Shown: in pieces, positions 1 through 1,079 of the stretch
How the letters are laid out: every line of letters begins with the position of its first letter
How positions within the stretch are numbered: the first letter of the stretch is position 1
Notes under the pieces: model-generated
Databases searched by the model: none
What the model saw: the letters and a program-made list of their open reading frames with translations, nothing else
Told to the model about the DNA's origin: nothing
Assembly: GCF_003334305.1 (NCBI RefSeq)
Contig: NZ_QOWS01000062.1
Strand: one strand, 5' to 3'
Source of the DNA: Escherichia coli
Lineage (GTDB): Bacteria > Pseudomonadota > Gammaproteobacteria > Enterobacterales > Enterobacteriaceae
Length of the DNA stretch: 1,079 nt
Made by a program: the position numbers and the translations under genes

Positions 1-1079
1 AAAAACTGGATCGACAAAGAAGAATATCCGCAATCCGCAGCCATCGACCTGCGTTGCGTAAATATGGTTGCCGATCTGTGGCATGCGCCTGCGCCGAAAA
101 ATGGTCAGGCCGTTGGCACCAACACCATTGGTTCTTCCGAGGCCTGTATGCTTGGCGGGATGGCGATGAAATGGCGTTGGCGCAAGCGTATGGAAGCTGC
201 AGGCAAACCAACGGATAAACCAAACCTGGTGTGCGGTCCGGTACAAATCTGCTGGCATAAATTCGCCCGCTACTGGGATGTGGAGCTGCGTGAGATCCCT
301 ATGCGCCCCGGTCAGTTGTTTATGGACCCGAAACGCATGATTGAAGCCTGTGACGAAAACACCATCGGCGTGGTGCCGACTTTCGGCGTGACCTACACCG
401 GTAACTATGAGTTCCCACAACCGCTGCACGATGCGCTGGATAAATTCCAGGCCGACACTGGTATCGACATCGACATGCACATCGACGCTGCCAGCGGTGG
501 CTTCCTGGCACCGTTCGTCGCCCCGGATATCGTCTGGGACTTCCGCCTGCCGCGTGTGAAATCGATCAGTGCTTCAGGCCATAAATTCGGTCTGGCTCCG
601 CTGGGCTGCGGCTGGGTTATCTGGCGTGACGAAGAAGCGCTGCCGCAGGAACTGGTGTTCAACGTTGACTACCTGGGTGGTCAAATTGGTACTTTTGCCA
701 TCAACTTCTCCCGCCCGGCGGGTCAGGTAATTGCACAGTACTATGAATTCCTGCGCCTCGGTCGTGAAGGCTATACCAAAGTACAGAACGCCTCTTACCA
801 GGTTGCCGCTTATCTGGCGGATGAAATCGCCAAACTGGGGCCGTATGAGTTCATCTGTACGGGTCGCCCGGACGAAGGCATCCCGGCGGTTTGCTTCAAA
901 CTGAAAGATGGTGAAGATCCGGGATACACCCTGTACGACCTCTCTGAACGTCTGCGTCTGCGCGGCTGGCAGGTTCCGGCCTTCACTCTCGGCGGTGAAG
1001 CCACCGACATCGTGGTGATGCGCATTATGTGTCGTCGCGGCTTCGAAATGGACTTTGCTGAACTGTTGCTGGAAGACTA
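1..1079 (+). CDS. gadB: Glutamate decarboxylase (PLP-dependent, GadA/GadB type), internal fragment; 5' and 3' ends lie outside the window (about residues 82-440 of a 466-aa protein)
   Basis: Frame 1 on the + strand is open across the full window (359 complete codons, no stop). Manual translation gives [359 protein letters not shown]. This matches the E. coli GadA/GadB sequence from memory, including the PLP-lysine motif S-x-S-G-H-K. Codon usage is typical of E. coli (about four-fifths of Leu codons are CTG by manual count). The symbol is given as gadB, but gadA is equally possible: the paralogs differ only in the N-terminal ~22 residues, which are outside this window. Confidence 0.96.
562..588 (+). 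other. PLP-binding active-site motif S-I-S-A-S-G-H-K-F; Schiff-base lysine codon AAA at 583-585 (Lys276 in GadB numbering)
   Basis: Translation of 562-588 in frame 1 is SISASGHKF. The S-x-S-G-H-K signature is the conserved pyridoxal-phosphate attachment site of group II amino-acid decarboxylases. Numbering follows from window codon 1 being Lys82, so codon 195 is residue 276. Confidence 0.9.

Follow-up and report, generated by a model that had tools for sequence, protein, structure and literature searches.

A 1,079-nt Escherichia coli contig that very probably represents the merged core of gadA and gadB

The stretch of Escherichia coli DNA analysed here (the window, 1,079 nt) is very probably a short-read-assembly contig in which the cores of gadA and gadB (gene nt 244-1322) have been merged into one sequence that stands for both copies. 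The origin of this window by collapse, and the type of genome from which it came, we infer from the comparisons below. An earlier note, made from the letters alone, had warned of paralog collapse, and the warning was justified: the window is the stretch common to both loci, and independent assemblies have repeatedly produced the same 1079-nt contig. That note had also held that gadA and gadB are indistinguishable from the window, which is true in a stronger form than was claimed, as the protein is identical and there is no universal in-window site. The features of the window are given below.

1..1079, + strand: internal glutamate decarboxylase CDS fragment, codons 82-440 plus 2 nt of codon 441, frame 1.
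1..1, + strand: 5' contig end and upstream graph fork; the first base past the dense differences at gene nt 213, 219, 234, 237, 240 and 243.
153 (gene nt 396), + strand: synonymous site, T in the window; the sole in-window difference in S10 (gadA T, gadB C), and C in both copies of K-12.
399..459, + strand: synonymous paralog-variable cluster of sites 399, 456 and 459 (gene nt 642, 699 and 702), C, C and T in the window.
580..585, + strand: His275-Lys276 codons CAT AAA, placed from the sequence and the residue numbering.
696..774, + strand: synonymous paralog-variable sites 696 and 774 (gene nt 939 and 1017), T and T in the window; C and C in gadB of M19, EC11 and B4103-1.
936 (gene nt 1179), + strand: synonymous site, C in the window; gadA C versus gadB T in K-12 only.
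1079..1079, + strand: 3' contig end and downstream fork; the last base before gene nt 1323.

Translated in frame 1 of the + strand, the window stays open throughout, over 359 codons and with zero stops. In a profile search its product scored 589.9 bits (cut-off 380.4) against the glutamate decarboxylase profile NCBIfam TIGR01788, covering positions 67-422 of the 431 in the profile, and it aligned with residues 82-440 of both GadA (1xey) and GadB (1pmm) at 854.6 bits each. PF00282 (pyridoxal-dependent decarboxylase) is recorded for the identical product on public contigs. The gad product is a PLP-dependent glutamate decarboxylase and belongs to an acid-resistance system. Lys276 of GadA/GadB, the codon for which is present in the window, is established as the lysine that binds pyridoxal phosphate. 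The window occupies nt 244-1322 of the 1401-nt gene (offset 243 in gadA of strain 120899); the start and stop codons both lie outside it, and residues 1-81 and 441-466 are missing. It is a fragment of a family member, ie not a whole gene. The remaining six-frame ORFs were short, out-of-frame and within the gad gene, and no Rfam families were found in the window. The window DNA was matched in every one of the 5,426 complete E. coli genomes, at a median of 2 places per genome and at up to 10 places in some of them.

Both ends of the window directly abut sites that distinguish the paralogs, nt 243 and nt 1323. At the latter, M19, EC11, B4103-1 and CUWW11 have C in gadA and T in gadB; T was present at this position in 206 records, and all 20 of the rows listed were annotated gadB. 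In each of M19, EC11 and B4103-1 the window occurs unchanged in gadA, and nt 243 and nt 1323 set gadB apart. The k-mers common to both loci in these three genomes (k = 77, 99 and 127) span exactly nt 244-1322, compared with 244-1376 in K-12 and 244-1394 in S10, and the shared blocks begin at nt 244 for k of at least 77 in all six genome pairs. The 27 differences between gadA and gadB of CUWW11 all fall outside nt 244-1322. The longest stretch over which the two are identical measures 1079 nt and is base-for-base the window, and the shared block was 244-1322 at every k tested.

These spans suggest how the contig would have been formed. A de Bruijn graph assembler would merge nt 244-1322 of gadA and gadB into one sequence, which would stop upstream at the dense gadA/gadB differences ending at nt 243, and downstream at nt 1323 if the genome has T at that position of gadB. 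The copies then differ again at nt 1395 and run on into unrelated flanks, so that no shared k-mer longer than about 71 nt exists beyond nt 1323. The same boundaries may also arise with no assembly step, if windows were set by a repeat criterion.

Between gadA and gadB of K-12 there are 31 base differences, 26 of them in nt 1-243, three in the window (399, 456 and 936) and two beyond it; the window carries the gadA base at all three of the in-window sites. Over residues 82-440 the proteins of K-12 gadA (b3517) and gadB (b1493) are both identical to that of the window. The nucleotide differences from the window are synonymous, numbering two for gadA (window 153 and 459, where K-12 has C instead of T) and five for gadB (window 153, 399, 456, 459 and 936). 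Compared to K-12 gadA, the window is without any flanks and without the first 243 nt, which are locus-specific. The gadB of other strains is nearer to the window, with one difference in S10 and none in CUWW11 and the fox isolate LR883965.1. When the two copies within a strain were compared, a single in-window difference was found in S10 (window 153), five to six in M19, EC11 and B4103-1 (gene nt 396, 642, (699), 702, 939 and 1017), and none in CUWW11. Altogether 36 sites in the 1401 nt were variable among the 14 gad copies compared. As the difference sets of K-12 and S10 are disjoint, no in-window position is a fixed locus difference, and no in-window nucleotide tells the locus in every strain.

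Window positions 399, 456 and 936 were considered as locus markers and rejected, as in S10 each of the three is C in both copies; they are also contradicted by some K-12-derived assemblies with the gadA state in gadB. Several such 'complete' assemblies (NZ_CP097883.1, which is MG1655-derived (L006, 2651-4051), J53, C600, MT102 and others) have a gadB with gadA bases at gene nt 642, 699 and 1179, unlike the reference MG1655. This could reflect either gene conversion in the laboratory lineage or mis-polishing between the paralogs.

The differences between the GadA and GadB proteins had been placed by the earlier note in the N-terminal 22 or so residues, and in K-12 they were found at residues 3, 5, 6, 9 and 22, all upstream of the window; the GadA-type residues there are Q3, L5, L6, F9 and A22 (gene nt 1-243). 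Its description of the two loci was correct in most respects. At the reference loci gadB was followed by gadC, in the context pqqL-gadB-gadC-digH, and gadA lay beside gadX and gadW, in the context ccp-gadA-gadX-gadW-mdtF. The acid-fitness-island genes that it expected upstream of gadA are not there: gadW, mdtFE, gadE, hdeD/AB and slp are on the 3' side with gadX, and the 5' side of gadA is formed by ccp and treF.

The occurrence of the exact window at each locus was counted by joining it to a 94-nt anchor (gene nt 150-243, containing six A/B differences). Eleven transversions were planted in the anchored query, such that only copies without a real mismatch remain at 99% identity or above. The exact window with gadA-type nt 150-243 was found in 285 complete-genome records, and with gadB-type nt 150-243 in four. 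Two of the four, LR883965.1 and CUWW11, were confirmed to adjoin gadC (pqqL-gadB-gadC-digH). The in-window haplotype is thus found at the gadA locus and, rarely, at the gadB locus. As the loci have no fixed in-window difference, assignment to the gadA haplotype is a frequency argument: the base calls are gadA-like (approximately 70:1 if they came from a single locus), yet the contig represents both loci. A chimera of the window with long K-12 gadB flanks gave no perfect match, a result confounded by variation in the flanks.

The best match to the gadB-anchored query, with 2 real mismatches, was NZ_CP027544.1 2716723-2717895, which is annotated gadA; this suggests that the gene may have a mosaic 5' region, or that its PGAP name does not follow the locus. 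NZ_AP027522.1, a 3,722-bp record, ends in a partial gad gene and matches the first 50 bases of the window, or 143 with the 5' anchor.

Contigs of the same class are widespread in public assemblies. The exact 359-aa partial product of the window was present in 101 index blocks of the public collection, always on contigs of less than 2 kb, and all ten of the contigs listed with this product were 1079 nt long. They came from MEGAHIT gut metagenomes (with names in k127_, k111_ and k119_), NCBI draft genomes and Logan. Each of the ten inspected contigs differed from the window by 2-6 synonymous differences, mostly at the paralog SNP sites and in mixed combinations, and none of the ten matched it base for base. 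Window positions 696 and 774 had mixed or N states in these sibling contigs. The draft contig QOFN01000082.1 (GCA_003338395.1), also of 1079 nt, has N at four paralog-variable sites, 399, 456, 696 and 774, which points directly to a consensus drawn from two copies that were merged. Another contig, L023, differs from the window at exactly 399, 456 and 459, three sites which form one assembly bubble at k = 99 or 127; in predicted-bubble units it is an EC11-type genome resolved gadA, gadB, gadA. The mixed and N bases were seen in the sibling contigs, and the window itself has a clean gadA haplotype, as would be expected from a CUWW11-like source or from a uniform resolution of the bubbles.

The collapse model predicts contigs of other lengths from genomes with other shared spans, and both predicted classes exist. 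The 1133-nt (K-12-type) class comprised 584 blocks, 583 of them with only contigs of less than 2 kb, and the 1151-nt (S10-type) class 1086 blocks, of which 1084 had only contigs of less than 2 kb. The short contigs listed for the two classes were exactly 1133 or 1151 nt long, including the SPAdes contig NODE_79024_length_1151. The collapsed gad-core contigs of all three lengths have gene nt 244 as their first base, as does the window. The 1079-nt class shares with it the last base as well, nt 1322, and the 359-aa product. Unlike the window, the classes of 1133 and 1151 nt run on to nt 1376 and nt 1394 respectively, ie further 3', because their source genomes are without T at nt 1323. In scaffolded records 100-N gaps stood directly before AAAAACTGGA, and in the few long records with fragments of the 1133- or 1151-nt type the core piece lay between 100-N gaps.

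Several long records contain related structures. CP012781.1 has the same core piece at its gadB and gadA loci (L034, 1566441-1573591; L035, 3635726-3642876), and the pasted core splits each gad gene into two called fragments. In the chromosome or long-scaffold records L028 and L036 a collapsed gad core is likewise flanked by 100-N gaps. The metagenome contig OBZF01000422.1 (reverse strand) has a mosaic gad 5' end, gadA-type over nt 1-144 and gadB-type at six of six sites in nt 213-243, and its gad sequence extends as far as gene nt 1394, immediately short of the A/B difference at nt 1395; the mosaic may be either a real recombinant or an assembly mis-join. A scan of metagenomes and one of species-representative genomes did not recover the source contig, a point against the collapse reading, as is the want of an exact match among the ten contigs above. 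The metagenomes gave one unrelated 23-kb contig, and the species representatives only NZ_RHJI01000034.1 of Escherichia sp. E1V33, a 48.5-kb draft contig with a gadB-gadC-type locus of 92.3% identity to the window. The E1V33 contig breaks off within its gad gene, at gene nt 93, apparently through a further assembly break in the paralogous region.

Two types of source genome would yield the window by collapse. In an EC11/M19-like genome, gadA would be the window and gadB would have 5-6 internal synonymous SNPs, the bubbles from which would have been removed by the assembler with the gadA allele kept each time. In a CUWW11-like genome, gadA-to-gadB gene conversion would have left nt 244-1322 identical in both copies. 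Approximately half of the cross-checkable gadA-exact genomes had T at nt 1323 in gadB, and EC11/M19-like genomes seem common, whereas the CUWW11-type configuration was seen in one of the 5,426 complete genomes. On frequency, therefore, an EC11/M19-like source is favoured. Uniform gadA resolution of all bubbles in an EC11-like source would be expected about once in 8 if the choices were random, and for such a source the uniform gadA haplotype counts against the collapse reading. Replication dosage (gadA near the origin, gadB near the terminus), acting through a higher depth of gadA, was considered as a reason for gadA alleles to be favoured in bubble removal and set aside as unsupported, since the sibling contigs show mixed choices. 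That the source strain was instead CUWW11-like, with a recent gadA-to-gadB conversion, and the window a true exact two-copy repeat and not a bubble-popped consensus, we regard as rather unlikely.

In the CUWW11 gadB itself a core of gadA type lies between a 5' end and a 3' end (T1323/T1395) that are both of gadB type. This is the pattern of a conversion tract bounded within nt 244-396 and nt 1017-1322, and could reflect either a polishing artefact or a conversion that really took place. Gene conversion is believed to have occurred between gadA and gadB (PMC10362622, citing Bergholz et al. 2007, Mol Biol Evol 24:2323), and the conversion-tract pattern in CUWW11 gadB resembles the recent gadA/gadB conversions attributed to Bergholz et al. 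2007 in PMC10362622. Both genes were also among the repeated genes that broke contigs in shotgun assemblies of K-12 (PMC3045373). The gadB break interval given there corresponds to approximately gene nt 244-1393, on an assumed offset that is uncertain by 1-2 bases, and provides approximate support. Another repeated pair of a different gene family, tufA/tufB, broke contigs in the same K-12 assemblies in the manner of gadA/B (PMC3045373).

The window might instead be a faithful piece of a single locus. If that locus were gadA, in the acid fitness island, the ends would lie beside paralog sites by coincidence. The preponderance of gadA anchors among complete genomes (285 records to 4) agrees with such an origin, as does the ccp-gadA-gadX context of the 100% matches examined. 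The chance of both ends abutting variable sites is, however, only about (36/1401)^2, or roughly 7e-4, the source sequence is itself just 1079 bases long, and contigs of identical boundaries are repeated across public assemblies; we consider a gadA-only origin improbable. A faithful gadB-locus piece with its core converted to the gadA allele has actual precedents in the four complete genomes with the exact window at gadB, two of them with confirmed context, but this placement is about 70 times rarer than that at gadA, and it leaves the coincidence of the boundaries unexplained. Moreover, as CUWW11 gadA holds the identical sequence, even there the window is not gadB-specific, and a gadB-only origin must be judged very improbable indeed.

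An origin outside both chromosomal loci, in a horizontally transferred or plasmid-borne gad copy, has in its favour a few gad matches on plasmid-labelled records (six places in the E. coli set and six PLSDB records). Those six are out of 72,556 plasmid records in PLSDB, however, and none is exact. Three are chromosome-sized, plasmid-labelled records of 4.8-4.9 Mb (NZ_OL790696.1, NZ_CP141089.1 and NZ_CP134663.1), and one holds 50 bases. The other two, CP054253.1 and NZ_CP141085.1, are large and non-mobilizable, at 252 kb and 385 kb, and their gad copies are of 97.1-97.5% identity. With exact chromosomal matches plentiful, this origin is the least credible of those considered. Collapse of the gadA and gadB cores into one contig remains the preferred reading of the window.

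The collapsed gad core is a known assembly artefact on known biology (paralogs and gene conversion), and nothing about it is new. Its consequences concern how gad genes are read from short-read assemblies. A collapsed contig stands for two genes, and calls of gadA/gadB copy number, presence or absence, and allele made from such assemblies are therefore unreliable. The paralog-variable bases in collapsed contigs can be chimeric, as in the sibling contigs with their gadA/gadB mosaics and N calls, and scaffolded 'chromosomes' may hold the same collapsed piece pasted at both loci. The size of the collapsed contig, on the other hand, tells the SNP state of the gadB 3' end: 1079 nt corresponds to T at nt 1323, 1133 nt to the K-12 type and 1151 nt to the S10 type.
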